A stretch of 32,585 bases of DNA from Trueperaceae bacterium (GCA_007130855.1 SLRS01000103.1:1-32585), one strand, 5' to 3'. Positions 7,184-22,657 are shown, numbered from the stretch's first letter. The notes: generated by a model not told the origin, from the letters alone. Numbers and translations are program-made.

Positions 7184-7369
7184 CGGCCTGGGGCCGCAGC
7201 AGAAGGGACCGCCGCGCGCGGGAGACGCGCTGACACCACCAGGCGTCAAGCAGCCGCGCGCCTCCCACCGCGACCGTCACGACCTCGAACACCTGGTGCT
7301 CCATGGAGCGCGCTTCCGATCCGCGATCGGCCGATCGCCGCGGGGCTGGTGGTTCATGGGGCCCAGCAT

Positions 7370-7703
7370 GGCAGACGCGCGTCGTGCTCGTGGACGTCGA
7401 CGCTGCGCTGCAGCAGGCCGCCGCCGAGTTGCTCGCGCCCTGCGCCGAGGGGTTCGAGCGCCGCGTCGCGTGGCGTGGGAAGATCGAAGCGAGCTTCGAG
7501 CGGTTCGAGGCGTCGATCGAGTCCATGCTTCGGCACCACGCCGAGCTCGATCCGATGCCTTGGCCGGGTCGCGCCGGGAGCGCATCGGTTGGCGCGGCAT
7601 CGAGATCTTGGTCCCACCGCTCGACCTCCAGCTCGCCGTGACGCGGCGTCGCAGGTTCGCCGCGCGAGCACGCCTGATCGAAGAGGCCATCAGCGCTGCC
7701 TGA
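7370..7703 (+). pseudogene. Frameshifted remnant of an unidentified gene
   Basis: Frame a (7372-7560) gives the coding-like ...TRVVLVDVDAALQQAAAELLAPCAEGFERRVAWRGKIEASFERFEASIESMLRHHAELDPM (GC2 about 35%, GC3 about 95%). This continues sensibly only after a 1-nt frame shift: ...RERIGWRGIEILVPPLDLQLAVTRRRRFAARARLIEEAISAA*. No intact start; upstream in-frame sequence is Arg/Gly junk. Confidence 0.3.
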
Positions 7704-7955
7704 TGCCCCGCGCCTGGGGCTCGGCCCTCGCGACCTGGCCCGTCGTCACCATGGTCTGACCGCCACCGTGCGTCACGATCGGCGTCTTCTCCTGAGTCGT
7801 TGCGCGCCGCCGTGCGGGTCCATGGCACACGGCACGATGAACTGCTCGCGCAGATGGGAGGGAGGCATCCCAGCCGGTTCGACGCATGCCGACGCCCGCG
7901 GGTGAAGCCGCGCGGGCGGCGACGGCAATGCGGCCGCTGGGCACGAGCCGTCCCA

Positions 7956-7984
7956 TTGACTCGCATGCCCAATAGCGCTACGCT
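7956..7984 (+). promoter_or_regulatory. Putative sigma70-type promoter (TTGACT-17-TACGCT) for the cytochrome/C_GCAxxG gene
   Basis: Hexamers with 17-nt spacing about 90 nt upstream of ATG 8073. The region is relatively AT-rich. A cacac..gtgtg hairpin and a gaaaggg direct repeat overlap the RBS (8050-8072). Confidence 0.35.
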
Positions 7985-8072
7985 ACCGCCACATGTTCCT
8001 TCTTTCACAAGCGCGTCCACGTTGACGGCTCGCTGGCTACCTCCGAGTTCACACGGAAAGGGTGTGAAAGGG

Positions 8073-9194
8073 ATGGAACAGAGGGTGCTTTCACGTAAGG
8101 AGTTCCTCAGGACGGGCGCAAAGCTGGCGGTGGGGCTCACCGCAGGTATCGGGGCGATGACCCTGTTCCCGAAGCGAGCCGCCGGGGCGCCGAGCACCAT
8201 CCCTGACCTGCCCTGGCCGTACGTGGAACTGGATGTCGAGGAGGCCCGCAGGCGCGGTCATCAGGGTTTCTACTGCTCCGACCGGGCGTGCTCGTACGGG
8301 GCGTTCCACGCCATCATCTCGATGCTGCGCGAGGAGGTCGGCGAACCGTACACGCTGATGCCGACGGGATTCTTGGAGTGGGGTCGGGGAGGCGCCTGGG
8401 GCTGGGGCACCTTGTGCGGCGCGTTGACAGGCGCGCTCACTGCGATGAACATCTGCCGAGGCAAGAGCACCGCCAGCAAGCTCGGCGACGAGCTGTTGGG
8501 TTGGTATACACAGGTGGAGTTCCCCACCGACATCAGCAACCGTTATGCCGCCGAGGGTAGGTTCTACGACACGAGGAACCGTGACGAACAGGTGCAATCG
8601 ATGTGCGGGTCGCCCCTGTGTCACATCTCCGTCAACACCTGGGTGGCAGCCGCGAACGTCGACGCTACGGGTCCTGAACGACGCGAGCGGTGTGGCCGGC
8701 TCACCGGCGATGTCGTCGCATATGCCGTGCAGATCATGAATGACGATCTAAAGGACAGCTTCGCACCGCTCTACGTCGCTCCGGCTTCGGTCGCCTACTG
8801 CATGAACTGCCACGGCCGCGACGGGTTGAACGATTCGCTCGGCAAGTTCGAGTGCACGCAATGTCACGGCGACCATACTGGACGACTCGCAAACAACTGG
8901 CGCGAGAGCCTGGCTCCCACCCATGCAGCGGGAGGACACTACCCGGTCCCGTTCATCCCCAGGACGACCATCCGCGTCACCATTCCGTCGGCGGGAGCCG
9001 TGTGGCTTGCCGTGTACGACATCCACGGCAGACTGGTCAAGAACCTGATCGATCTCGAGCACTTCGCCCAGGGGCTTCACGACGTGTCGTGGGACGGGAC
9101 CGACAACTTCAACGAGCGCGTAGCGAGTGGTACGTACTTCTACCGCCTGCAGGTGGGAAGCCACACCGAAACGCAGCGCATCGTCCTCGTCTAG
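8073..9194 (+). CDS. Secreted multidomain redox protein: Tat-like signal + C_GCAxxG_C_C family domain + two CxxCH c-type haem motifs + C-terminal T9SS/FlgD-Ig-like sorting domain
   Basis: - Start: MEQRVLSRKEFLRTGAKLAVGLTAGIGAMTLFP, a Tat-like (S-R-K-x-F-L) signal with an AAAGGG RBS.
- Middle: YCSDRACSYGAF...GGAWGWGTLCGALTGALTAM matches the C_GCAxxG_C_C family.
- Haem motifs: CMNCHG and CTQCHG.
- Last ~80 aa (IRVTIPSAGAVWLAVYDIHGRLVKNLIDLEHFAQGLHDVSWDGTDNFNERVASGTYFYRLQVGSHTETQRIVLV) match the Por_Secre_tail / FlgD Ig-like CTD.
- The ORF-track start at 7800 was rejected because the upstream section is Arg-rich. Confidence 0.85.
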   Translation: MEQRVLSRKEFLRTGAKLAVGLTAGIGAMTLFPKRAAGAPSTIPDLPWPYVELDVEEARRRGHQGFYCSDRACSYGAFHAIISMLREEVGEPYTLMPTGFLEWGRGGAWGWGTLCGALTGALTAMNICRGKSTASKLGDELLGWYTQVEFPTDISNRYAAEGRFYDTRNRDEQVQSMCGSPLCHISVNTWVAAANVDATGPERRERCGRLTGDVVAYAVQIMNDDLKDSFAPLYVAPASVAYCMNCHGRDGLNDSLGKFECTQCHGDHTGRLANNWRESLAPTHAAGGHYPVPFIPRTTIRVTIPSAGAVWLAVYDIHGRLVKNLIDLEHFAQGLHDVSWDGTDNFNERVASGTYFYRLQVGSHTETQRIVLV

Positions 9195-9213
9195 CAGTCC
9201 CTCATGCCCACCT

Positions 9214-9243
9214 CCCCTTCCGACGAGCGCTCGTCGGAAGGGG
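9214..9243. terminator. Perfect 30-bp palindrome (ccccttccgacgagc|gctcgtcggaagggg) immediately downstream of the cytochrome gene
   Basis: Seen in sequence. 15-bp arms starting 20 nt after the TAG stop (9192-9194). Likely an intrinsic terminator or insulator upstream of the FGGY kinase promoter. Confidence 0.45.
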
Positions 9244-9331
9244 AGGCCGTGTGGTGGTCGCGCGGTGAGCACATTGCGAAGCCCTCCGTGGACGACGGCG
9301 CTTCAGCAGCTCCAGGAGCCCAGCCGTGCGG

Positions 9332-9382: not shown

Positions 9383-10885
9383 ATGAAGCACGCTCTGGGG
9401 ATCGACATCGGCGGAACGACGGTCAAGGCATCGGTCTTCGATGCCCGGGGTCGAGAACTGGGCTCCGCAGGAGAGACCACGCCGGTGGTGACCGACGAGC
9501 CGGGCAAGGTGGAGCGGGACCTCGCCCGCACCTGGCAGGGAATCCTCCAGGTGATCGCGGGAGCCTGCCAAGCCGCCCGCGTGGACCCCGCCACCATCGA
9601 CTACGTCGCTACCACCGGGCACGGCAAGGGGGCCTACCTGCGCTTCTCGGGAGAAGCGTGGCCCTCGGTGGGGATCGTCTCCAGCGACAATCGCGCCGCA
9701 CGGCTGGCGGCGGAGCTGGGATCGACGGCGGCGTACCGCAGCAGCATCCTGCCACGCATCACCCAGCCCCTGTGGCCCTCGCACTCCTCGGTCCTCCTGG
9801 CCTGGCTGCGCCGGGAGCAGCCGGAGCGCTTCGGCCGGATCGAGCAGGTCCTCTTCTCCAAGGACTTCGTCAACTGCATGCTGACGGGCGTGGCGTCCAC
9901 GGACGACACGGCCGCCACGGCCAGCGGCCTCTACCGCACCGACGACAACATGGTGGACCCCGAGGTCCTGGAGTACTTCGGCCTGACCAGCCTCGCAGCC
10001 GCGCTGCCCGAGGCGTCGCCGTCGCACCAGGTCATGGGCGCTGTCCGCCGCGAGGTGGCAACCGCGACCGGACTACGCGCGGGCACCCCCGTCGTAGCGG
10101 GTCTCTTCGACGTGAACGCCGCGGCGATCGCCTGTGCGATCCGGACCGACCGCGACCTGAGCCTCGTGGCGGGAACGTGGAACATCGCGACGGCAACCAC
10201 GACCAGCCCGGATCGCTTCGCCGCTTCGTGGGAGTCCCTGGCGGTGCAATCGCACTGCATCCCCGGGCAATGGATGGTCCACGAGGGAAGCCCCACATCG
10301 GCGAGCAACCTCGAGTGGTGGGCGCAGCGCCTCTTCGGCCTCGCTGGCATCGCCTCCTGGGACGTCATCAACGACCACGTCTTCCGGACCGAGGACACGT
10401 CTGTCCTCTTCTTCCCGTACATCTACGGCAGCCCGGGCGACCCGAAGGCCACGGGCACGCTCATCGGACTGCAGTCGGGCACCACGACCGGCGAGGTGAT
10501 CCGGGCGATCTACGAAGGCATCACCTTCCAGTTGCTCGAACACGCTCAACCGACCCTGCAGGTCGTCCCCGAGATCGACCACCTGCGCCTCGCCGGAGGT
10601 ATCAAGCGCTCTCGGCCCTGGGTGCAACTGGTAGCGGACACGTTCGGGAAGACGCTTGCGGTGGCACCGACCGACGAGATCGGCGCCCTCGGAGCGGTCA
10701 TCTGCGGCGCCGTCGGCATCGGGGCGTACGCCGACTACCCGACGGCAGTGGCGCGCATGACCAACTTCATGGATCCCTTGGAGCCGAACCCCGCACAGCA
10801 TGAGAAGCTGGCGCGGCGCTACGAGAAGTTCATGCGCACCCGGGCATCCCTCACCGCCTCCTGGTCGGCCGCCGACGACGCGTAG
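9383..10885 (+). CDS. FGGY-family carbohydrate kinase (xylulokinase/rhamnulokinase-like)
   Basis: N-terminal MKHALGIDIGGTTVKASVFD, internal ...VAGTWNIATATT... and C-terminal LRLAGGIKRSRPWVQLVADTFGKTLAV motifs match the FGGY N- and C-domains. About 500 aa. Start chosen at the ATG with RBS, not the ORF-track start at 9326. Confidence 0.9.
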   Translation: MKHALGIDIGGTTVKASVFDARGRELGSAGETTPVVTDEPGKVERDLARTWQGILQVIAGACQAARVDPATIDYVATTGHGKGAYLRFSGEAWPSVGIVSSDNRAARLAAELGSTAAYRSSILPRITQPLWPSHSSVLLAWLRREQPERFGRIEQVLFSKDFVNCMLTGVASTDDTAATASGLYRTDDNMVDPEVLEYFGLTSLAAALPEASPSHQVMGAVRREVATATGLRAGTPVVAGLFDVNAAAIACAIRTDRDLSLVAGTWNIATATTTSPDRFAASWESLAVQSHCIPGQWMVHEGSPTSASNLEWWAQRLFGLAGIASWDVINDHVFRTEDTSVLFFPYIYGSPGDPKATGTLIGLQSGTTTGEVIRAIYEGITFQLLEHAQPTLQVVPEIDHLRLAGGIKRSRPWVQLVADTFGKTLAVAPTDEIGALGAVICGAVGIGAYADYPTAVARMTNFMDPLEPNPAQHEKLARRYEKFMRTRASLTASWSAADDA

Positions 10886-12455
10886 GCGCGCCGCGCCAGC
10901 GGTCGAGGGCACGTTGCAGCCTGAACACGGAGCCCTCGCGCATACGGAACTGCCACATCTCGTCTGCCGTGGCCACCTGGAGCGTGTCGGTGCGCTCGGT
11001 CGAGGTCGTGCGCAATGATGCGAGGGGGACCGCCAGGCCGCCGAAGCGCAGCGCGTTCGGCGTGATCTCGAGCCAGTCCTCGCCCAAGCGAACCAGCGGC
11101 GCGATCGGTCCGAACGCCGAAGGCTCGTGGGCGCCTCGCGCCCACCCCCGGAGCGCACCCACTTCCTCCGCCTGCCACACGGGTCGCGCGAGCTCCGCCA
11201 GGGTCACCTCGGCCGCGGGGCAGCCGGCGGATCGGAACCTGCCCCCCGGACTCGGCTGCCAGGCCGCCCCGCAGGCCCCGCAACGCAGCTCGGCGGGCCG
11301 CCACGACGCCTCGTCGCGGCAGGTAGGGCAGCGCCACAGTACGCGTCCGAGCTTGGCGCGATCGAGCCCGCCTACGTGCACCGACTGGGGGTCCTCATCG
11401 AGGAGTTCGCCGATGGCGCGGTCCACCACCTTGGCAGCGGCGCCCCCGCCGAACGTGACCGGCGCGCCGATCCGCACCCGCACCGGGCGCAACCGCAGAC
11501 GCTCGGCCCACCGCGGTCCCGCGTCGTAGTTCCCGCAGATACCGACCGGGACGACCGGCACGGCGAGCGTCCCGAGCATGCGCGCCACCTGCGGCAACGC
11601 CCCCTGGTAGACGCCCAGCGGCGAGCGCTCACCCTCGACGAAGACGCCCACGAGCGCGCCCTGGTCGAGCCGCCGCAGCAGCTCGCGGGTCGCCGCCGGG
11701 TCGACGCGATACCGACGCAGGGGCACCGCCGCGGTGCGCCGCATGGCCCAGGCCAGTGCGCCGCCGCGGAACGCCTCGGCCGTCGCCAGGAAGTGGATCC
11801 GCCGCCAGGTCACGCACTGCAGGAACACGGGATCGGCGTAGCAGGCATGGTTCGCCACCAAGACAGCGGCGCCCGTGCGCGGAACGTGCGCCCGTCCCTC
11901 GACTCGCAGCGGCAGCGCGACGCGGGCCAACACCTGCGCAAGGCGGTAGACGTCCAACCGCGGCAGCAACCCGACCTGACGCTGGTAGCTGTGGTACGCC
12001 GCGCCGAACCGCCTGCGCAGACCGCGCTCCTCGACCAGGGCGTAGCCGACCCAGGCAGGCAGGAGGGCGGCACCGACGACCAACGCCATGCCTGCGGAGC
12101 CGATGACCAACCCGGCACCGACGACGGTCAGGTGGAAGCCTACGTACACCGGATGCCGCACCCAACGGTAGGGACCTGACACGACCAAGCGCGGTGGCGG
12201 CAACGCGCTCACGGGTAGGCCCCGTCCCCGCACGCCCAACGCCAGGATGCTCGCCAGCATCAGCGCGCCACCGCACGCCACCACGATCCAGCCTCCGGAC
12301 CACGCCTCGAGCGCGACCGGCAGGCGTCCGTCGAACCAGGTGCCCAACCACCACAGCAGGAGCGGCAAGGCCACCCAGAACACCGCGACGTACACCAGCA
12401 CGATGCCGGCGCGCGCCAACCTCGAGCCACGTTGCGCGCTCACGACCGAACCCAC
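10851..12455 (-). CDS. Fusion protein: ICMT/PEMT-like membrane methyltransferase domain + lysophospholipid acyltransferase (PlsC/LPLAT) domain + C-terminal zinc-ribbon region
   Basis: - N-terminal polytopic region with PPRLVVSGPYRWVRHPVYVGF...EERGLRRRFGAAYHSYQRQV (ICMT/PEMT signature).
- LPLAT motifs follow: NHACYAD (HxxxxD), FVEGERSPLG, VPVVPVGI.
- Then CPTCRDEASWRPAELRCGACG (four-Cys ribbon).
- GTG start with AGGAGG RBS.
- 3' end overlaps the convergent FGGY kinase by about 35 nt. Confidence 0.8.
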   Translation of the reverse strand: MGSVVSAQRGSRLARAGIVLVYVAVFWVALPLLLWWLGTWFDGRLPVALEAWSGGWIVVACGGALMLASILALGVRGRGLPVSALPPPRLVVSGPYRWVRHPVYVGFHLTVVGAGLVIGSAGMALVVGAALLPAWVGYALVEERGLRRRFGAAYHSYQRQVGLLPRLDVYRLAQVLARVALPLRVEGRAHVPRTGAAVLVANHACYADPVFLQCVTWRRIHFLATAEAFRGGALAWAMRRTAAVPLRRYRVDPAATRELLRRLDQGALVGVFVEGERSPLGVYQGALPQVARMLGTLAVPVVPVGICGNYDAGPRWAERLRLRPVRVRIGAPVTFGGGAAAKVVDRAIGELLDEDPQSVHVGGLDRAKLGRVLWRCPTCRDEASWRPAELRCGACGAAWQPSPGGRFRSAGCPAAEVTLAELARPVWQAEEVGALRGWARGAHEPSAFGPIAPLVRLGEDWLEITPNALRFGGLAVPLASLRTTSTERTDTLQVATADEMWQFRMREGSVFRLQRALDRWRGAPTRRRRPTRRR

Positions 12456-15128: not shown

Positions 15129-18100
15129 ATGCCATCGGTGAGCCGTGTTCCATTTCATGTTCGAAGCACTTTCTGGGCTGGCCAAGGGCCGGACACTGCC
15201 TGGCAGGCGACCCTCCTCTGGCGCCTGGCGCTGCTCGCGCTGGCGTTGGCCTGCACGCCGCTGACCGCCCGGGCGCAAGACGCCCCGATCCCCGCGCGCT
15301 TCGCCACCACCCACAGCGCCACCGACTACCCCGGCGGCGACCTGATGCCGATCTTCAACATCACCCTGGAGCAATGCCACGCCACCTGCCTGCGGCTGCA
15401 CGATTGCCTTGGCTTCACCTTCGACCAGCGCAACGACGCCTGCTTCCCCAAGCGCAGCCTGGGCGCGCCGATCCCGTTCGAGGGCGCGCTCTCCGGCGTG
15501 ATCTCGCACCACGGTGCGGCCGCGCTCGACCAGGCCCGAGCGGCTGCCGCAACGCTGAGCTTCCTCGACGGGTACGACTTCCAGGCCGCACGCGAACAGG
15601 CCACGTCCATGGCCGAGCGCTACCAAGCCGATGGCAGGACGGAGATCGCGCTCCTGGACGCGGCGCGCGGGCCGTCGCCAGCCCCAGTCGTCCAGTCGAC
15701 CGGCGCGGCCGTGACCGTGGCCGATGGTGGCGCGGCCTGGCTCGCCCATGCGCGCGCGCTGGCCGACGATGCCGCGCGCAACCGGAGCCGGCAGTACGAG
15801 TCGAGCCGGCAGGCCGCACTCGCGGCGCTCAATGCCAGCCTGCGCCTGCCCGAACCGGACCGCGCCCAGGCGCTGGCCGTCATGGCACGCGCGTTGGAGG
15901 CGACGTATCGGGGCGAGGCCGCCTTGAGCGCGCTGCGCCTCGCCGACCAGCTCAGCCCGAACGTCGCCTCCGACGAACTCGCACGCCTGCGCGAGCGCTT
16001 CGGCTTCCGCGTGCTGTCGCACGACGTCGACGCCGGCACCGCTACGCCCCGCATCTGCGTGCGCTTCTCGGAGGATCTCTCGCCCACGCGCGATCATGCG
16101 CCCTTCGTGCGCAGCGACACGCGCGCGCTCGCGCTCGAGATCGAGGGCCGGCAGCTGTGCGTGACGGGTGTCGCCTACGGCGAGAGCTACAGCCTGGTCT
16201 TGCGCGCGGGTCTTCCCAGCATCACCGGCGACGCGCTCGCGCGCGACGTGCCGCTCGAGGTCTACATCCGCGACCGCGCGCCGTCGGTGCGCTTCCCGGG
16301 CCGCGGCTACGTGCTGCCCGCCTTCGGCCCGCGCGCCCTGCCGGTGGAGACCGTCAACGCCGATGGGCTCGAGCTGCGGCTGCTGCGCGTCTCGGATCGG
16401 AACCTGGTGAACGCCATCCGCGAGGGCGCCTTCGCCCAGGCCATCAGCGTCTGGGAGGGCGAGCGTTTCGAAACGCTGCTCGCCGAGAGCGTCTGGCAGG
16501 GCGAGGCCCGGCTCGAAGGTCAGCTCAATCGCGCCACCACGTCGCGCCTCGCGCTCGATGACGTCGGCCCGCTCGAGCCCGGCGTCTACGTGCTGCGCGC
16601 GACCGTGCCGGCGACCGAGCCGTGGGACGTGGCGCCGGCCACGCAATGGTTCATGGTCTCCGACTTGGGCGTGACGACGCTCTGGGGCACGGACGGCCTG
16701 CACGTGGTCGCGCAGCGCCTCTCGGATGGCCAGCCCGTCGAAGGTCTGCGCGTGGCGCTGCTGGCGCGCTCGAACCGGCTCCTCGGCGAAGGCCACACCG
16801 ACTCGCAGGGCCACGTCCGTTTCGCGGCGGCGTCGACGCGCGGCACGGGCACGGCGGCCCCGGCGATGGTGTTGGTCGAAGGGGCCGACGACATGGCGGT
16901 GCTCTCGCTCGAGGAGAGCGAGTTCGACCTCTCGGACCGCGGCGTCACGGGGCGCCCAGCCTCTGGCCCCGTCGACCTCTTCCTGACCACGGACCGCGGT
17001 GCGTACCGTCCGGGCGAGGTGATCCACGTCACCGCCCTCGCCCGCGATCACCAGGCGCGCGCCATCCACGGTCTGCCGCTCACGGCGCGGCTGCTGCGCC
17101 CCGACGGGGTCGAGTACGCGCGCGTCGTCTCCGGGCACGAACGTGCCGGGGGGCACGTGATCTCGCTGCCGCTCGGCTTCGACGTACCGCGCGGAGCCTG
17201 GCGGGTCGAGATGCGCGCCGACCCGGACGCGCCCGCCCTGGCCAGCCAGACCGTGCTGGTCGAAGACTTCCTGCCCGAACGTATCGACTTCGAGCTGTCG
17301 CTGGCAGCTGACGGGCCGGTCGACCCCACCGCCCCGCCCGACGTGCTGATCACGGCGCGGCACCTCTTCGGCCCAGCCGCAGCGGGGCTGGCCTTGTCGG
17401 GCAGCGTGAGCGTGTACGCGACCCCCGAACTCGACGGCTGGCCGGGGTTCCACTTCGGCCGCTCGGATCAACGCATCGACGCTCAACGCCGCACGTTCGC
17501 CGGCGGCTTGCAGACCGATGCCGACGGGCGCCTCGCGGCTCCCCTGCCGCTCGATCGCATCACCCTCGACAACCGCCCCTATGCGCTTGACGTGAACGCC
17601 ACACTCGTCGACGGGGCCTCACGCCCGGTGGAGCGCAGCATGACGCGCGCGCTGCGGCCCGTAGGCCCCGTGATCGGCATCCGCCCCGGGTTCGACGACA
17701 GCCTGCCCGAGCACGCGGAGGCCACCTTCGACCTGGTGCTGGTCGACCCAGCCGGCGCAGCGATGCCCGGCGAGTTGCGTTGGCAGGTGGACCGCGTCCA
17801 CACCCGCTATCAGTGGTTCAGCCAGGGCGGGCGCTGGCATTGGGAGCCCGTGCACGAACGTCAGCGCGTCGCCGAAGGCGTCGTCACCGTGTCGGACGGT
17901 CCGATCCACCTCGCCGTACCCGTGACCTGGGGCCGCCACGACCTGCGCGTGACCTACGAGGGCGCGGCGCACGCCTCCGCCTCGCTTCCCTTCTCGGCGG
18001 GCTGGTACGCCGTCGCCGCGACCCGCGAGACGCCCGAGTTGCTCGCCCTGTCGCTCGATGCGACCGAGTACGCGCCCGGCGACGTGGCACGGTTGCGCAT

Positions 18101-20597
18101 CGTCCCCGAGGGCGCGGGTATGGCGCTCGTCTCGGTGCTCTCGGACCGGGTGGTCGACCTGCGCCTCGTCCCGGTCGAGGGTGAGACCACCGTCGAGTTG
18201 CTCGTGACCGACGACTGGGGCGTGGGTGCCTACGTCACCGCCAGCCTGATACGCCCCAGCGACGGTCCGGAGCACGTCAGCGCGCGCAGCCTCGGGCTGG
18301 CCCATGCCAGCGTTGCGCCCGGCGACCGCGCGCTGCACGCGCTGCTGAGCGCACCCACGGAGGTGAGGTCGAACGAACGGCTGGAGCTGGTGCTCGAACT
18401 GACGGGCGCGGCCGACGGACCCGCCTACGCCACCGTCGCGGCGATCGACCTCGGGGCGCTCACGCTCACCGGGTTCGCGTCGCCCGACCCGCTCGACCAT
18501 TACTTCGGTCAGCGGCGCCTGGGCGTGGCGATCCGCGACCTCTTCGGGCGACTGATCGACGCGCGTGCGGGCGCGATGGGGCAGGTGCGCTCCGGCGGCG
18601 GCCTCGACGCGGGCGACGCCCACCGCGACGGCCCCCTCCCGGCCGAAGACCTGGTGGCGTTCTTCACCGGCCCAGTGGAGCTGCACGACGGGCGCGCGCA
18701 CATCGGCTTCGATCTCCCGGCCTTCAACGGCACCCTGCGCGTCATGGCGATCACCTGGACCGACCACGCCGTCGGCCAGGCGCAGGCCGACGTGCTGGTA
18801 CGCGACCCGGTGGTGGTGCAGCCCAGCCTGCCGCGCTTCATGACACCGGGCGACGTCAGCCGCATCAGGCTGGAGTTGACCCATGCCACTGGTCCTGTCG
18901 GTGAGATGGCGCTGGCGGTGGTCGGCCACGGCGTGGGCGAGGTGCCGCCGAGCGTCACGCTACTCGAGGGCGAGCGCGCCGTGCTCGACCTGCCCCTGCG
19001 ACCCACCGCGGTCGGCGATCACGTCTACCAGATCGCGCTGACTACGCCCGACGGGCGCGTTCTGACGCGTGAGGTGCGCCTGAGCGTGACGCACACCGAC
19101 CCCGAGATCGCGCTGTCGACGCAGTTCGTGCTGGCGCCGGGCGAGAGCTACCGCTTCGACGAGGAGGCGCTGGCCGGCTTCCGAGCGGGCACCGCGCGGG
19201 CGACGCTGAGCGCCGGCGCCGGCGCCGCGCTCGACCTGCCGGGTCTCCTCCAGCGCCTGCTCACCTACCCCTACGGCTGCACCGAGCAGATTGCGTCGAG
19301 CCTCCAGCCGCTGTTGCTGGCCCGCACGCAGATCGCGGAACTCGGGCTCATGCGCGAGTCCGAGCTGCGCGAGCGGCTGCAGCTGGGCGTCGACCGCCTC
19401 CTCACGCGGCAGGGTCGCAGCGGCAGCTTCGGGACGTGGGGCGCGGGCGGGTACGACCTATGGCTCGACGCCTACGTCACCGACGTCTTGCTGCGCGCCG
19501 AGGCGCAGGGCGCGAGCGTCCCCGCGCAGGTGTTGCGCATGGCGCTGAACAACCTGCGCAACCAGGTGGCCCAGGCGGGATCGATCCACGACGGGGCCGC
19601 GGCCTATGCCTACGCCTTCTACGTGCTCGCGCGCGCGGGCGAAGCCGCGATCGGCGACCTGCGCTACTACGCCGACACGCTGGCCGAGCGCTTCGACACG
19701 CCGCTGGCGGCGGCCCAACTGGGCGCTGCCTTGGCAGCCTACGGCGAGCGGGCGCGCGCCGACGCGATGTTCGAGCGGGCGCGCGACCTGGCGCTCGCCA
19801 GCGCCGACGCGGGCGGCTGGCGAGACGACTACGGCACCCCCCTGCGCGACCGGGCCGGGCTGCTCGCGCTCGCGGTCGAAGCCGGCAGCGGCGTCGTGGA
19901 CCGGCTGCAGATCGCGAGCCTGCTCGCGCGTCGTGCTCCGGCGCATCAGCTCTCCACGCAAGAGGCCGCCTGGGCCCTGCGGGCGGCGGTCGCGATGGGC
20001 GCCGCGGGCCAGGGGCTCATCCTCGACGGCCGGCCGGTGGTCGGCGACGTCGTGCGGCTCGTCGGCGGCGAGCCTGCAGTCATCCGCAACGTCGGCAGCG
20101 CCAACGTGACGGTGACGCAGACCGCCTTCGGGGTGCCTGACGTCGCACCCGAAGCAGGCGGCATCGGCTACACGATCCACCGCCGTCACTCCACGATCGC
20201 GGGCGAGGAGGCCGACCTGAACGCCGTGCGCGTCGGCGACCGGGTGGTCGTCGACCTCGAGGTCCGGCCGGATCGAGGCGTGGCCGGCGGGCGGTTGCTG
20301 ATCGACGCGGCACTGCCGGCGGGGTTCGAGATCGACAACGCCAGCTTGCTGCGCGAGGGCGACATCCGCGCCCTCGACTGGCTGGCGGTCCACGTCTCGG
20401 CCGAGATGACCGAGGCGCGCTCGGATCGCTTCCTGGCGGCGGTCGATTGGGTCACGGAGGTGCCACTCCGGCTGGCCTTCGTGGTGCGTGCGGTCTCGCC
20501 GGGCGACTTCCACTACCCGGCGGCCGCGGTCGAGGACATGTACCGGCCCACCAACCGCGCGCTCAGCGACACGGGCCGCGTACGCATCGGCCCGTGA
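15129..20597 (+). CDS. Bacterial alpha-2-macroglobulin family protein (YfhM/ECAM-like) with N-terminal PAN/apple domain and CTEQ thioester motif
   Basis: - 1822 aa with GGAGG RBS and a signal/lipobox-like LALALAC.
- A PAN/apple-like Cys pattern sits near the N-terminus (FNITLEQCHATCLRLHDCLGFTFDQRNDACFPK).
- Long MG-domain-like beta-rich body.
- Thioester region LLTYPYGCTEQIASSLQPLL, followed by an alpha-helical TED-like domain and a receptor-binding-like C-terminus. Confidence 0.9.
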   Translation: MPSVSRVPFHVRSTFWAGQGPDTAWQATLLWRLALLALALACTPLTARAQDAPIPARFATTHSATDYPGGDLMPIFNITLEQCHATCLRLHDCLGFTFDQRNDACFPKRSLGAPIPFEGALSGVISHHGAAALDQARAAAATLSFLDGYDFQAAREQATSMAERYQADGRTEIALLDAARGPSPAPVVQSTGAAVTVADGGAAWLAHARALADDAARNRSRQYESSRQAALAALNASLRLPEPDRAQALAVMARALEATYRGEAALSALRLADQLSPNVASDELARLRERFGFRVLSHDVDAGTATPRICVRFSEDLSPTRDHAPFVRSDTRALALEIEGRQLCVTGVAYGESYSLVLRAGLPSITGDALARDVPLEVYIRDRAPSVRFPGRGYVLPAFGPRALPVETVNADGLELRLLRVSDRNLVNAIREGAFAQAISVWEGERFETLLAESVWQGEARLEGQLNRATTSRLALDDVGPLEPGVYVLRATVPATEPWDVAPATQWFMVSDLGVTTLWGTDGLHVVAQRLSDGQPVEGLRVALLARSNRLLGEGHTDSQGHVRFAAASTRGTGTAAPAMVLVEGADDMAVLSLEESEFDLSDRGVTGRPASGPVDLFLTTDRGAYRPGEVIHVTALARDHQARAIHGLPLTARLLRPDGVEYARVVSGHERAGGHVISLPLGFDVPRGAWRVEMRADPDAPALASQTVLVEDFLPERIDFELSLAADGPVDPTAPPDVLITARHLFGPAAAGLALSGSVSVYATPELDGWPGFHFGRSDQRIDAQRRTFAGGLQTDADGRLAAPLPLDRITLDNRPYALDVNATLVDGASRPVERSMTRALRPVGPVIGIRPGFDDSLPEHAEATFDLVLVDPAGAAMPGELRWQVDRVHTRYQWFSQGGRWHWEPVHERQRVAEGVVTVSDGPIHLAVPVTWGRHDLRVTYEGAAHASASLPFSAGWYAVAATRETPELLALSLDATEYAPGDVARLRIVPEGAGMALVSVLSDRVVDLRLVPVEGETTVELLVTDDWGVGAYVTASLIRPSDGPEHVSARSLGLAHASVAPGDRALHALLSAPTEVRSNERLELVLELTGAADGPAYATVAAIDLGALTLTGFASPDPLDHYFGQRRLGVAIRDLFGRLIDARAGAMGQVRSGGGLDAGDAHRDGPLPAEDLVAFFTGPVELHDGRAHIGFDLPAFNGTLRVMAITWTDHAVGQAQADVLVRDPVVVQPSLPRFMTPGDVSRIRLELTHATGPVGEMALAVVGHGVGEVPPSVTLLEGERAVLDLPLRPTAVGDHVYQIALTTPDGRVLTREVRLSVTHTDPEIALSTQFVLAPGESYRFDEEALAGFRAGTARATLSAGAGAALDLPGLLQRLLTYPYGCTEQIASSLQPLLLARTQIAELGLMRESELRERLQLGVDRLLTRQGRSGSFGTWGAGGYDLWLDAYVTDVLLRAEAQGASVPAQVLRMALNNLRNQVAQAGSIHDGAAAYAYAFYVLARAGEAAIGDLRYYADTLAERFDTPLAAAQLGAALAAYGERARADAMFERARDLALASADAGGWRDDYGTPLRDRAGLLALAVEAGSGVVDRLQIASLLARRAPAHQLSTQEAAWALRAAVAMGAAGQGLILDGRPVVGDVVRLVGGEPAVIRNVGSANVTVTQTAFGVPDVAPEAGGIGYTIHRRHSTIAGEEADLNAVRVGDRVVVDLEVRPDRGVAGGRLLIDAALPAGFEIDNASLLREGDIRALDWLAVHVSAEMTEARSDRFLAAVDWVTEVPLRLAFVVRAVSPGDFHYPAAAVEDMYRPTNRALSDTGRVRIGP

Positions 20598-20629
20598 GCC
20601 CACCCCGGCTCGCACCGCGAGCGCGAGCG

Positions 20630-22657
20630 ATGCCGGCGCGCTCGATGCGCGCGGGTCTCGCGCTCCTGGCGCTCGCGCTGCTGCTGTGGTTCGGCGCCGA
20701 CCGCTGGGTGGCCACGACCGACGTGCCGCCGCTGGCGCTCGAGACCTCCGTCGAGGTGCTGGCGGCGAGTGGTCAGCTGTTGCGCGCCTTCACGGTCGCC
20801 GACGGGCGCTGGCGGCTGGCGCTGGCGTCGGAGCGGGTCGACCCCGGCTACCTGGCCATGCTGATCGGTTACGAGGATCGTCGCTTCTTCGAGCATCGCG
20901 GGGTGGACCCGCTGGCGCTCGCGCGCGCCCTTTGGCAAGCCGTGTCGAGCGGCCGACGGGTCTCGGGCGGGTCGACCCTGACCATGCAGGTCGCACGCCT
21001 GCTCGAGGATGGCTCGACCGGCTCCTGGACGGGCAAGCTGCGCCAGATCCGGCTCGCCCTGGCGCTCGAGCGCGTCCTCTCGAAGGACGAGATCCTCTCG
21101 CTCTACTTGCATCACGCGCCGATGGGCGGCAACCTCGAGGGCGTCCGCGCGGGCGCGCTCGCCTGGTTCGGCAAGGAGCCCGGCCGGCTGACCGAGGCGG
21201 AGGCGGCGCTGCTGGTCGCACTGCCGCAGGCGCCGAGCCTGCGCAGCCCCGACCTCCACCCCGAAGGGGCGCGCGTGGCGCGCGACCGGGTGCTGACACG
21301 CTCCGCGGCAGTGGGCGTGATCAGCGCCGATGCGGCGCGCGCCGCGCTGCGCGAGGCGCTGCCCAGCGTGCGCCGCCCCTTCCCGGCCCACGCACCGCAC
21401 GTGGCGGACCGCCTCCGCTCGGTCGAGCCCGAACGGCAGGTCCACCGCACGACCATCGATGCGCAACTCCAGGCGGCGCTGGAGGAACTGGCCGCGGACG
21501 CGCTGCGCGATCTGCCACCGCAGGCGACGCTCGCGCTGCTCGTCGTCGAGTTGGAGAGCGGCAGCATTCGGGCCAGCGTCGGCTCGGCCGACTACACCAG
21601 CGACGCCCGGCGCGGCTTCGTGGACATGACCCAGGCGCTGCGCTCGCCCGGGTCGACGCTGAAGCCGCTGGTCTACGGACTGGCGTTCTCCGACGGGATC
21701 GCCCACCCGGAGACGCTGCTCAACGACCGACCCGCCAGCTACGCCGGCTACGCGCCGCGGAACTTCGACCACACCTTCCGTGGACCCGTCAGCGCGCGCG
21801 AGGCGTTGCACGCCTCGCTGAACCTGCCGGTCGTCGAACTCACGCACGCCCTGGGCCCGGCACGGCTGATGGCGGCGCTGCGACAAGCGGGGATCCAGGC
21901 CGAGGTGCCCGGCGACACGCCGGGGCTGGCGGTCAGCCTGGGTGGTGTCGGGATGAGCCTCGAGGGCCTGGTGCAGCTCTACGCCGGCATCGCCCGCGGC
22001 GGTGAGGCGCTGGCCCTCTCGCTCGTCGAAGGTGCAGCCCAGCCGCGGGCGCGGCTGGTGACGCCCGCGGCTGCCTGGCATCTCGGCGCGATCCTCGCCG
22101 GGACGCCGCGCTCCGCACGGCTGCCCGACTGGCCCCTGGCCTTCAAGACCGGTACCTCGCACGGCCACCGCGACGCCCTGGCGCTCGGCTTCGACGGCGC
22201 CTTCGCCGTCGGCGTGTGGGCGGGGCGCGCCGATGGCGCCCCCGTGCCGGGCATGTACGGGGCCGAGGTGGCGGCTCCCCTGCTCTTCGAGACCTTCGCG
22301 CGACTCGGCGAACGGCCGGCGGCGTTGCCGCCCGCACCGCCTGGGACGCTGATCGCCTCCAGCGCCGAACTGCCTGCGCCGCTGCGGCAGTTCGGCACGA
22401 GGCTGGTCCAGACCGAGGACGCGCCGCGCCTCACCTTCCCCCCGGACGGGGCCGCGCTCGCACCGCTGGCGGGCGGGATCCTGACGCGGGTCGAGCGCGG
22501 ACGCGCGCCCTTCACCTGGTTCGCCAACGGCGCGCCCGTGCTGCTCGCGAGCCATGAGCGCGAGGCGCGGCTGGACCTGGAAGGCCCTGGCTTCGTGACG
22601 CTCGCCGTGGTCGACGCGGAAGGGCGTTCGGCGCGGGTGCAGGTCGAACTGCGGTAG
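20630..22657 (+). CDS. pbpC: Penicillin-binding protein 1C (glycosyltransferase family 51 transglycosylase + transpeptidase-like + PBP1C C-terminal domain)
   Basis: - N-terminal anchor MPARSMRAGLALLALALLLWF.
- GT51 motifs LIGYEDRRFFEHRGVDP and RVSGGSTLTMQVARLL.
- TP-domain motifs (GSTLKP, KTGTS).
- Sits immediately downstream of the A2M gene, the conserved yfhM-pbpC arrangement.
- Start 20630 vs 20645 is uncertain. Confidence 0.85.
   Translation: MPARSMRAGLALLALALLLWFGADRWVATTDVPPLALETSVEVLAASGQLLRAFTVADGRWRLALASERVDPGYLAMLIGYEDRRFFEHRGVDPLALARALWQAVSSGRRVSGGSTLTMQVARLLEDGSTGSWTGKLRQIRLALALERVLSKDEILSLYLHHAPMGGNLEGVRAGALAWFGKEPGRLTEAEAALLVALPQAPSLRSPDLHPEGARVARDRVLTRSAAVGVISADAARAALREALPSVRRPFPAHAPHVADRLRSVEPERQVHRTTIDAQLQAALEELAADALRDLPPQATLALLVVELESGSIRASVGSADYTSDARRGFVDMTQALRSPGSTLKPLVYGLAFSDGIAHPETLLNDRPASYAGYAPRNFDHTFRGPVSAREALHASLNLPVVELTHALGPARLMAALRQAGIQAEVPGDTPGLAVSLGGVGMSLEGLVQLYAGIARGGEALALSLVEGAAQPRARLVTPAAAWHLGAILAGTPRSARLPDWPLAFKTGTSHGHRDALALGFDGAFAVGVWAGRADGAPVPGMYGAEVAAPLLFETFARLGERPAALPPAPPGTLIASSAELPAPLRQFGTRLVQTEDAPRLTFPPDGAALAPLAGGILTRVERGRAPFTWFANGAPVLLASHEREARLDLEGPGFVTLAVVDAEGRSARVQVELR

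Follow-up and report, generated by a model that had tools for sequence, protein, structure and literature searches.

Split-Soret cytochrome c (Ssc) from the sulfate reducer Desulfovibrio desulfuricans ATCC 27774 (PDB code 1H21) represents a protein family that has been known for decades and has no assigned function. In the literature Ssc appears as a periplasmic low-potential carrier, and mutants of D. alaskensis G20 are without phenotype (PMC4215793). Other split-Soret members are listed among the c-type cytochromes of iron-reducing archaea (PMC8105010, PMC4600277), and one has been described as the sole electron-transfer candidate of a soda-lake acetogen (PMC8359318). T9SS (type IX secretion system) cargo, which carries a C-terminal sorting domain (CTD), has been described as hydrolases, adhesins and S-layer proteins that are exported through Sec. 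Here, we compare these systems with a gene from Trueperaceae bacterium (GCA_007130855.1), located at positions 8073–9194 in a stretch of 32,585 nucleotides (SLRS01000103.1:1-32585; the window, meaning the whole stretch analysed). The interpretation that we consider probable is that the gene encodes a split-Soret-type cytochrome c, and that this exported redox protein, obtained by horizontal transfer, has kept a sorting domain in a host for which no T9SS is known. The parts of the gene product are distributed along the DNA as follows.

8073–9194, + strand: coding sequence, 373 aa and stop codon, without internal stops; split-Soret-type dihaem cytochrome c with C-terminal sorting-type domain
8073–8189, + strand: leader, aa 1–39, apparently derived from a twin-arginine translocation (Tat) signal, with RK in place of RR
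8193–8882, + strand: split-Soret core, aa 41–270, a helical C_GCAxxG_C_C domain and a C-terminal haem-binding segment (NF047622, 1H21, structural model)
8259–8261 and 8622–8624, + strand: candidate distal haem ligands H63 (near-invariant) and H184 (invariant), from an alignment of 109 homologues
8289–8291, 8415–8417, 8619–8621 and 8691–8693, + strand: invariant cysteines C73, C115, C183 and C207, from the 109-homologue and 1H21 alignments
8799–8813, + strand: haem c site 1, C243-M-N-C246-H247, invariant in the 109 homologues and aligned with CGECH of 1H21
8853–8867, + strand: haem c site 2, C261-T-Q-C264-H265, invariant in the 109 homologues and aligned with CTPCH of 1H21
8883–8957, + strand: disordered linker, aa 271–295, with pLDDT below 50 at aa 272–292 and the highest dN/dS of the gene (0.40–0.60)
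8958–9191, + strand: C-terminal beta-sandwich, aa 296–373, of the T9SS type A CTD/FlgD-Ig family (profiles, structural model)

The start codon is set by the N-terminus MEQ..LSRKEFL, which is conserved in the homologue alignment. An earlier, sequence-only reading of the window had described the gene product as a fusion of three modules, and the strings it quoted are all present in the 373-aa translation: SRKEFL (aa 7–12), YCSDRACSYGAF, GTLCGALTGAL, CMNCH, CTQCH and, at the C-terminus, AVWLAVYDIHGRLVKNL...ASGTYFYRLQVGS. For the orthologue P0002 (L009, 10001–11110), the called start (369 aa, MLSRKEFL) is probably four codons late; an in-frame ATGGAACAGAGG upstream gives MEQRMLSRKEFL, which resembles the other orthologues.

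For the core, the relationship with Ssc is seen both in sequence and in predicted structure. The NCBIfam model for split-Soret cytochrome c, NF047622, matches aa 41–267 with an E value of 2e-50 (model positions 41–263 of 275), and the match spans the C_GCAxxG_C_C region through both CxxCH sites. The sequence of 1H21 is matched at E 1.1e-35 over aa 48–267 (chain residues 19–235 of 247), and in this alignment the cysteines of the two proteins line up, as do both haem sites. The AlphaFold2 model, built with 109 homologues, has an overall pLDDT of 85.6 and values above 95 for aa 41–267. Its top Foldseek match is 1h21_A, with E 3.9e-16, TMt 0.81, a root-mean-square deviation of 2.4 Å over 224 columns, and 32% identity over the structural alignment. 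The four invariant cysteines are candidate ligands of a non-haem iron (2Fe-2S-type) centre, as judged from their conservation. The ligand roles of the Cys and His residues are presumably those of Ssc, for which we rely on the title of the 1H21 entry and on what Abreu et al. 2003 reportedly described.

The C_GCAxxG_C_C assignment in the sequence-only reading is supported by PF09719 (38.2 bits; gathering threshold, GA, 27; aa 80–220), while TIGR01909, which that reading had named as a check, gives 22 bits against a cut-off of 47.4. Its two CxxCH haem sites stand, being in register with those of 1H21 and invariant in 109 homologues, although the cytochrome c profiles that were also named do not pass: all generic ones are under cut-off, with noise only. 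The proposed structure prediction yields a core that folds like 1H21 and a C-terminal beta-sandwich. What does not hold is that the C_GCAxxG_C_C domain and the dihaem cytochrome form an unusual combination. A C_GCAxxG_C_C domain with two C-terminal CxxCH motifs defines split-Soret cytochrome c (1H21, NF047622), so a novel three-way fusion was rejected; modules one and two together make up a single, already known family, and the protein consists of two modules and not three.

The distribution of the second module was followed among the best 120 of the 218 homologous clusters (at 90% identity) that were found at E<=0.001, and the cluster counts given here have this scope. The core is joined to the CTD in about 80 clusters with lengths of 364–391 aa. 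The remaining clusters, 265–310 aa long, end 3–17 residues past the second CxxCH. All named CTD-bearing clusters come from Ignavibacteriae, Bacteroidota or Sphingobacteriales genome bins, and their annotation does not go beyond "C-GCAxxG-C-C family (seleno)protein" or "T9SS type A sorting domain-containing protein". The named CTD-less clusters belong to Blastocatellia/"bacterium HR10" (labelled split-Soret cytochrome c), Chloroflexota, Aminicenantales and Spirochaetes. A contig-level search with the whole protein gave four confirmed loci in Ignavibacteria bins, where the match is confined to the CTD. Literature searches that combined T9SS with cytochrome and extracellular electron transfer, and T9SS with haem cytochrome, returned nothing. 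The fusion of core and CTD is thus recurrent and, as far as full-text searches reach, undescribed. The description of the modules as not normally combined does not fit this recurrence, and while the finding itself is real and correctly located, the headline of three modules never combined is overstated.

The C-terminal module passes two profiles, PF13860 FlgD_ig (33.3 bits, GA 27, aa 306–359) and TIGR04183 for the T9SS type A sorting domain (30.3 bits, cut-off 23, aa 290–372), whereas PF18962 Por_Secre_tail reaches 16.4 bits against a cut-off of 27. In the model it has six strands between aa 298 and 372 with a pLDDT of about 90, and the domain runs to the stop codon. Foldseek relates it to FlgD (3osv, E 1.7e-4), and more weakly to the CTDs of PorU, PorZ, NucA (in a T9SS complex) and RgpB. 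With two profiles above cut-off and a beta-sandwich model, the FlgD-Ig/T9SS-type C-terminus proposed from sequence alone is supported, PF18962 being the one profile that falls short. A phmmer search with aa 288–373 finds 178,979 representative proteins at E<=1e-3, and among the top matches are many unrelated proteins with a single terminal copy at 50–57% identity (NYPNPFNP...VASGTYFYRLEAGSYSETKRMVLIK). One of the proteins with the same CTD, at 51% identity, is P0389, an unrelated multihaem cytochrome of 668 aa with eight CxxCH and two CxxxCH motifs in two repeats; split-Soret proteins are therefore not the sole cytochromes with this sorting domain. At homologue loci from the Fibrobacterota-Chlorobiota-Bacteroidota (FCB) group of phyla, a superphylum, adjacent genes also end in the same CTD. 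By these comparisons, the domain behaves as a generic terminal sorting module.

The Trueperaceae versions (P0001–P0004, including the window protein) differ from the others at both ends of the domain. In place of the start motif NYPNPFNP, the window CTD has HYPVPFIP, and HAPIPFTP and HDPGPFAR also occur in the clade; among the aligned members shown, NYPNPFNP is absent only in P0001–P0004. The window CTD ends in QRIVLV and the others of the clade in QRLVIY, QRIIIF and QRINLF, so that the terminal Lys is gone, and the subfamily end motif K-x-x-L-x-K is not found in the window CTD. K or R is the last residue in 77 of the 82 CTD-bearing members, the exceptions being P0001–P0004 and the aberrant P0065. 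The C-terminal motif is reported to be important for T9SS function, but T9SS can tolerate domains that have lost one or two residues at the end (PMC11285876), and the bearing of the lost end motif on T9SS function in this clade is suggestive, not decisive. Between Trueperaceae orthologues, at dS of about 0.5, dN/dS is 0.05–0.24 for the CTD, 0.11–0.17 for the core and 0.40–0.60 for the linker. A pseudogene or a decaying CTD was rejected, as these ratios are well under 1. Purifying selection on the CTD fold despite the lost end motifs suggests a structural, anchoring or alternative-sorting role.

The leader contains the motif S7-R8-K9-E10-F11-L12-R13, a weakly hydrophobic h-region rich in G, A and T (aa 18–32), and a basic c-region (P-K34-R35) that is followed by A-A-G-A. 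The pattern [ST]-R-[KR]-x-F-[LI] occupies the same place in essentially all homologues. RK is found in 74 and RR in one of the CTD-bearing members; among the CTD-less members there are 17 with RK and 18 with RR. Four RR homologues (P0100, P0109, P0118 and P0119) pass the Tat-signal model TIGR01409 with 18.2–21.8 bits against a cut-off of 16.7, and NF047622 aligns through the leaders of RR members from model position 2. CTD-bearing and CTD-less groups are similar in mean Kyte-Doolittle hydropathy of the h-region (1.50 vs 1.54) and in its content of G, A, T and S (about 57% in both), and a basic residue (K/R) is present in the c-region of 81% and 69%, respectively. A dN/dS of 0.04–0.28 between Trueperaceae orthologues indicates purifying selection on the leader. 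The Tat-like leader noticed in the sequence-only reading is thus present and homologous to RR leaders that pass TIGR01409, and judging from these alignments it is best described as Tat-derived, a family-wide trait. That reading had also pointed to a conflict between a Tat route and attachment of c-type haem. The conflict is real, but it is not specific to this gene and applies to the whole family, because RR leaders above the TIGR01409 cut-off are found in relatives without the CTD. A literature search returned nothing on Tat-exported c-type cytochromes, and reviews mention Tat only generically. As a separate observation, six CTD-less RR homologues (P0100, P0110, P0113, P0116, P0118 and P0120) add a lipobox, e.g., LVSCG or LAGC, and these are predicted Tat-exported lipoproteins, which would give the same core an alternative membrane tether.

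The exact protein is found again in contig SKRZ01000031.1 of Trueperaceae bacterium CSSed162cmA_502 (bin GC 70.9%), a bin classified by GTDB as p__Deinococcota, f__Trueperaceae, with a completeness of 76.7% and a contamination of 1.6% (supplement of PMC6704655). Orthologues with 82% and 75% identity are present in SKWW01000224.1 of Trueperaceae bacterium CSSed162cmB_22 (bin GC 70.7%) and in PXAU01000093.1 of Trueperaceae bacterium T3Sed10_22m (bin GC 70.1%), respectively; the latter bin contains a 16S fragment with 96.6% identity to a clone of the Truepera group (supplement of PMC6146748). One survey detected T9SS genes in 60 of 97 genomes of Bacteroidetes but in none of the other clades, and Deinococcus-Thermus had only the type Vb secretion system, T5bSS (PMC4793230). 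A paper from 2024 states that phyla other than those of FCB lack T9SS genes, and that species without T9SS are also without CTD proteins (PMC11285876). The T9SS surface display proposed from sequence alone is therefore plausible for the Ignavibacteriae and Bacteroidota homologues, but doubtful for this protein, because its host belongs to Trueperaceae (Deinococcota) and the surveys find no T9SS outside FCB.

Base composition and phylogeny point to an origin of the gene outside its present host. The window gene has a GC content of 63.6% and its flanks 71.6%, with a GC content at third codon positions (GC3) of 0.81 vs 0.83–0.94. The dip is repeated at two orthologous loci, L009 (67.4 vs 71.8) and L016 (64.2 vs 67.9), and at FCB loci the GC content of the gene matches its surroundings. 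In a neighbour-joining tree of the core, the window clade P0001–P0004 is nested among CTD-bearing FCB sequences, with P0006, from a contig with 51% GC, as its sister. No CTD-bearing open reading frame (ORF) besides the window-type gene was found in about 75 kb of non-redundant Trueperaceae DNA, and FCB-type loci of about 21 kb each contain one to four others (L011, L014 and L015) or none (L013). The gene is found at another position in each of the three Trueperaceae genomes, suggestive of a variable region. From these sequence comparisons, it is most likely that the Trueperaceae lineage acquired the gene horizontally, probably from FCB bacteria. Pairs of PIN toxin and PhdYeFM antitoxin genes are located directly 3' of two orthologues (L009, 11326–11991; L016, 11274–11911), and are not seen in the window.

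The analyses above establish to which family the protein belongs, its fold and conserved ligand residues, the homology of its leader, how the architecture is distributed, the host, the anomalous composition of the gene and the selection that acts on the CTD, and these results can be combined in the following scheme. The protein would have a helical core of about 230 residues with a four-Cys non-haem iron centre, and two c-type haems near the C-terminal end of the core. The iron-sulfur domain would fold in the cytoplasm, and export would take place while the short haem-binding segment remains unstructured, after which the cytochrome c maturation (Ccm) system would attach the haems on the outer side of the membrane. 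Such a sequence of events would be the most economical way around the conflict between Tat and c-type haem. The fusion of core and CTD probably arose in bacteria of the Ignavibacteriae/Bacteroidota type, where it is common, and where the CTD would pass the folded holoprotein to T9SS, to be displayed on the surface as a low-potential electron carrier. The Trueperaceae protein is probably periplasmic or envelope-associated, because no T9SS is known in its host.

Several observations weigh against this scheme. The NF047622 score of 171.8 bits does not reach the equivalog cut-off of 400 bits, and nine environmental homologues, eight of them CTD-less, score 161–194 bits; by this measure the window protein is a distant homologue of the Desulfovibrio protein and not an equivalog. 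The position of H63 is Asp in 1H21, and haem ligation may therefore differ. TIGR01409 finds no match in the window leader, which is without RR, at E<=10, and the leader of the RK homologue P0084 is likewise not matched. The low GC content of the gene could partly reflect amino-acid composition, and the neighbour-joining tree is a quick one, without support values and with a patchy presence of the CTD in its middle part. The statement that the host has no T9SS rests on surveys of other genomes, and for this clade we infer cofactor content, export route, location and physiological partner.

Export could also proceed without Tat. The RK leader would then be an ordinary Sec signal, its Tat likeness ancestral, and Ccm would attach haem to an unfolded apoprotein, with the four-Cys site empty, occupied by another metal, or loaded outside the cytoplasm. 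We find this rather unlikely. RK does replace RR in 74 of the 75 CTD-bearing members with a recognisable motif, and the missing TIGR01409 matches of the window and P0084 leaders agree with a Sec signal. Attachment of c-type haem, as Sanders et al. 2001 are said to have put it, normally needs an unfolded, Sec-exported apoprotein. T9SS cargo, too, has been described as Sec-dependent (PMC11285876). Yet conservation extends to F-L of the motif, to the weakly hydrophobic h-region rich in G, A and T and to the basic "Sec-avoidance" c-region, the h- and c-regions are similar in the CTD-bearing group, which is almost all RK, and in the CTD-less group, half of which is RR, and the low dN/dS of the leader argues in the same direction. 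Single R-to-K variants of Tat signals are known to work. The four cysteines are invariant, moreover, and the cytoplasm is the normal place of assembly for iron-sulfur centres. A different departure from the scheme concerns the destination. Trueperaceae may possess an unrecognised T9SS or a functional analogue, with the CTD taking the holo-cytochrome to the surface for extracellular electron transfer. The domain passes TIGR04183, lies at the extreme C-terminus, has the beta-sandwich fold and is under purifying selection in three Trueperaceae species; the disordered linker ahead of it is typical for T9SS cargo, and other cytochromes elsewhere carry the same CTD. The surveys, on the other hand, restrict T9SS to Bacteroidetes/FCB, with no CTD proteins in species that lack it (PMC4793230, PMC11285876), there is no second CTD ORF in the approximately 75 kb of Trueperaceae DNA, and both NYPNPFNP and the C-terminal motif that is reported to be important for T9SS (PMC11285876) are lost in exactly the Trueperaceae clade, which makes this alternative quite unlikely. 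Slightly more doubtful still is a bolder extension, according to which the CTD was captured outside FCB and selected with remodelled ends, as part of an unrecognised surface-targeting route in Deinococcota or as a repurposed envelope anchor, and FCB bacteria would in addition have a cargo that combines Tat, haem and T9SS.

The anomaly of the host would vanish if the contigs came from a high-GC FCB bacterium with T9SS, e.g., a member of Gemmatimonadota, and had been placed in the wrong bins. All host assignments do derive from metagenome bins with a completeness of 61–82%, the three NCBI contigs include two short ones (2.7 and 8.3 kb), and the FGGY kinase next to the gene has its closest named relative in a protein labelled Spirochaetaceae bacterium (67%). 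We nevertheless regard a binning artefact as highly improbable, because three separate Trueperaceae bins from two studies agree (orthologues at 75–100% identity, contamination 1.3–1.6%), the GC content of the contigs (68–72%) fits that of the bins (70–71%), and the synteny of alpha-2-macroglobulin (A2M), PEMT-acyltransferase and aminotransferase genes is common to the contigs. In addition, one bin contains the Truepera-like 16S fragment, and the contigs are without other CTD proteins. As for function, the cysteines of the C_GCAxxG_C_C domain might serve as the active site of a thiol or metalloid redox protein (arsenic, selenium, disulfide) that is not primarily an electron carrier. Ars-type clusters are the only recurrent neighbourhood of the gene (L021, 11373–18569; L011, 15959–20136; L014, 5886–9988): these three FCB loci have ArsR-Usp-ArsB and ArsR-thioredoxin-DsbD_TM-ArsP_1-Thioredoxin_3 clusters 0.3–9 kb from the gene, a weak lead to metalloid or thiol redox functions, and the NCBI family label reads "(seleno)protein". 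Two of the three loci are from one sample, though, and no Trueperaceae locus shows the association, nor do L013 and L015. Since 1H21 has an iron centre at the homologous cysteines, according to the entry title, and both haem sites are invariant, we hold this function to be very unlikely, and retain the reading of a split-Soret-type cytochrome c with a horizontally acquired sorting domain.

The window neighbours of the gene encode hydrolases, an FGGY kinase, a PEMT-acyltransferase, beta-lactamase-family proteins and an A2M/PBP1C pair; no redox partner, Ccm or T9SS genes were found among the window genes. A conserved operon context was rejected, as the neighbourhoods of homologues differ between genomes. 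There is one neighbour that keeps its synteny with the gene between Trueperaceae loci (window, L009 and L010), namely the PEMT-acyltransferase, a PEMT/ICMT phospholipid methyltransferase-acyltransferase fusion of 534 aa at 10851–12455 on the minus strand. The A2M gene at 15129–20597 encodes a bacterial alpha-2-macroglobulin of 1822 aa with the full MG/bait/TED set and an N-terminal PAN-like match. It is followed at 20447–22657 by PBP1C (transglycosylase-transpeptidase-BiPBP_C), which makes up the classic A2M/Pbp1C pair. In L017/L018, an A2M gene is also located about 5.6 kb from the orthologue. In the FCB-type locus L013, the gene lies between ferredoxin-like genes and genes for iron-sulfur assembly (SufC/SufD, Mrp and NifU).

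The elements that border the coding sequence are the following.

7956–7984, + strand: putative promoter, −35 TTGACT (7956–7961), 17-nt spacer and −10 TACGCT (7979–7984; fits TANNNT), read from the sequence
7989–8013, + strand: conserved 25-nt block CCACATGTTCCTTCTTTCACAAGCG, between the −10 element and the ribosome-binding region; near-identical in the window, L009 and L016, partly so in L020
8046–8072, + strand: purine-rich ribosome-binding region AGTTCACACGGAAAGGGTGTGAAAGGG, directly 5' of the ATG, conserved in 4/4 orthologues
9211–9246, + strand: perfect 18+18 bp palindrome, 17 nt past the stop codon; predicted factor-independent terminator hairpin without U-tract

Only four blocks can be aligned in the upstream DNA of the four Trueperaceae orthologues. 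In the first two, TTGAC and, 17–18 nt downstream, TAC[GC]CT are conserved in register (n=4), so that the TTGACT-17-TACGCT promoter of the sequence-only reading gains comparative support, although a scan with the sigma-70 consensus does not call the pair and the −10 element matches at 3/6 positions. The 25-nt block is possibly an operator, a leader or a 5'-untranslated element, given its conservation and placement. The palindrome had been described as 30 bp long and ending at 9243; it actually measures 36 bp (18+18) and extends to 9246. As RNA it folds with −46.8 kcal/mol (z = −4.6) and has no T-run. It occurs once in the window, which was searched for copies, and is thus not a repeated element there; each Trueperaceae orthologue has its own, different GC-rich hairpin shortly 3' of the stop codon. 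The palindrome is likely a factor-independent terminator hairpin. The conserved upstream blocks, together with the orthologues' own downstream hairpins, therefore argue for an independently transcribed unit, in agreement with the monocistronic gene proposed earlier. The approximately 820 bp 5' of the gene (7250–8072) are without convincing coding signal. A minus-strand ORF that gene callers place at 7277–8020 (247 aa) has a GC3 of 0.66 vs 0.83–0.94 in the real genes of the genome, and it has no Pfam match and no similarity to the DUF2293 gene that occupies the same position in L016. A search against Rfam gave no matches.

At present, the result amounts to a well-supported re-annotation: the split-Soret family is known, and what is new is a recurrent, undescribed variant with a CTD, together with an unusual host. 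The widespread subfamily suggests that some Ignavibacteriae and Bacteroidota show a cofactor-loaded, low-potential redox protein on their surface. If true, the approximately 75 homologues from FCB bacteria would form the first family of T9SS cargo that needs Tat, periplasmic haem attachment and T9SS in series, and a surface carrier with two haems and an iron-sulfur centre would be a new component of extracellular electron transfer. This would pose a problem of biogenesis, as an iron-sulfur centre favours Tat and c-type haem favours an unfolded segment, and the folded holoprotein would then have to cross the outer membrane. The Trueperaceae copy can be seen as a natural experiment, where the CTD fold is kept and the end motifs are gone, and which can separate secretion features of the CTD from structural ones.

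The FlgD Ig-like domain (PF13860; 3OSV) is the best Pfam and Foldseek match of the window CTD (aa 304–363, 33.3 bits, E 1.7e-4), but the likeness is at the level of the fold only, since the window domain is terminal and single, and has no flagellar context. Stand-alone C_GCAxxG_C_C proteins (PF09719/TIGR01909), many of which are small cytoplasmic proteins, share the helical domain and the C...CGAxxG...C...C pattern with the core; in the window protein this domain is fused to a dihaem segment and is predicted to be exported.

As for T9SS type A CTDs (TIGR04183/PF18962), the window domain is located at the extreme C-terminus, has an Ig-like beta-sandwich of about 80 residues with a flexible linker ahead of it, and has close homologues that end many unrelated proteins. 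Unlike these, the CTDs of the window clade are without NYPNPFNP and the terminal Lys, and are found in a phylum without reported T9SS, and the cargo is predicted to be a cofactor-bearing redox protein with a Tat-like and not a Sec leader. The comparison with Ssc from D. desulfuricans is the closest over the core, where homology, fold and the order of four cysteines and then two CxxCH sites are alike, and the N-terminal export leader is of the same descent. The window protein differs from it by the RK leader, by H63 (Asp in 1H21) and by its distance from the family model (172 vs 400 bits). The hosts are also different, an aerobic-type lineage of Deinococcota and a sulfate reducer, and to the architecture of Ssc the window protein adds a linker of 25 residues and a beta-sandwich CTD of 78 residues.

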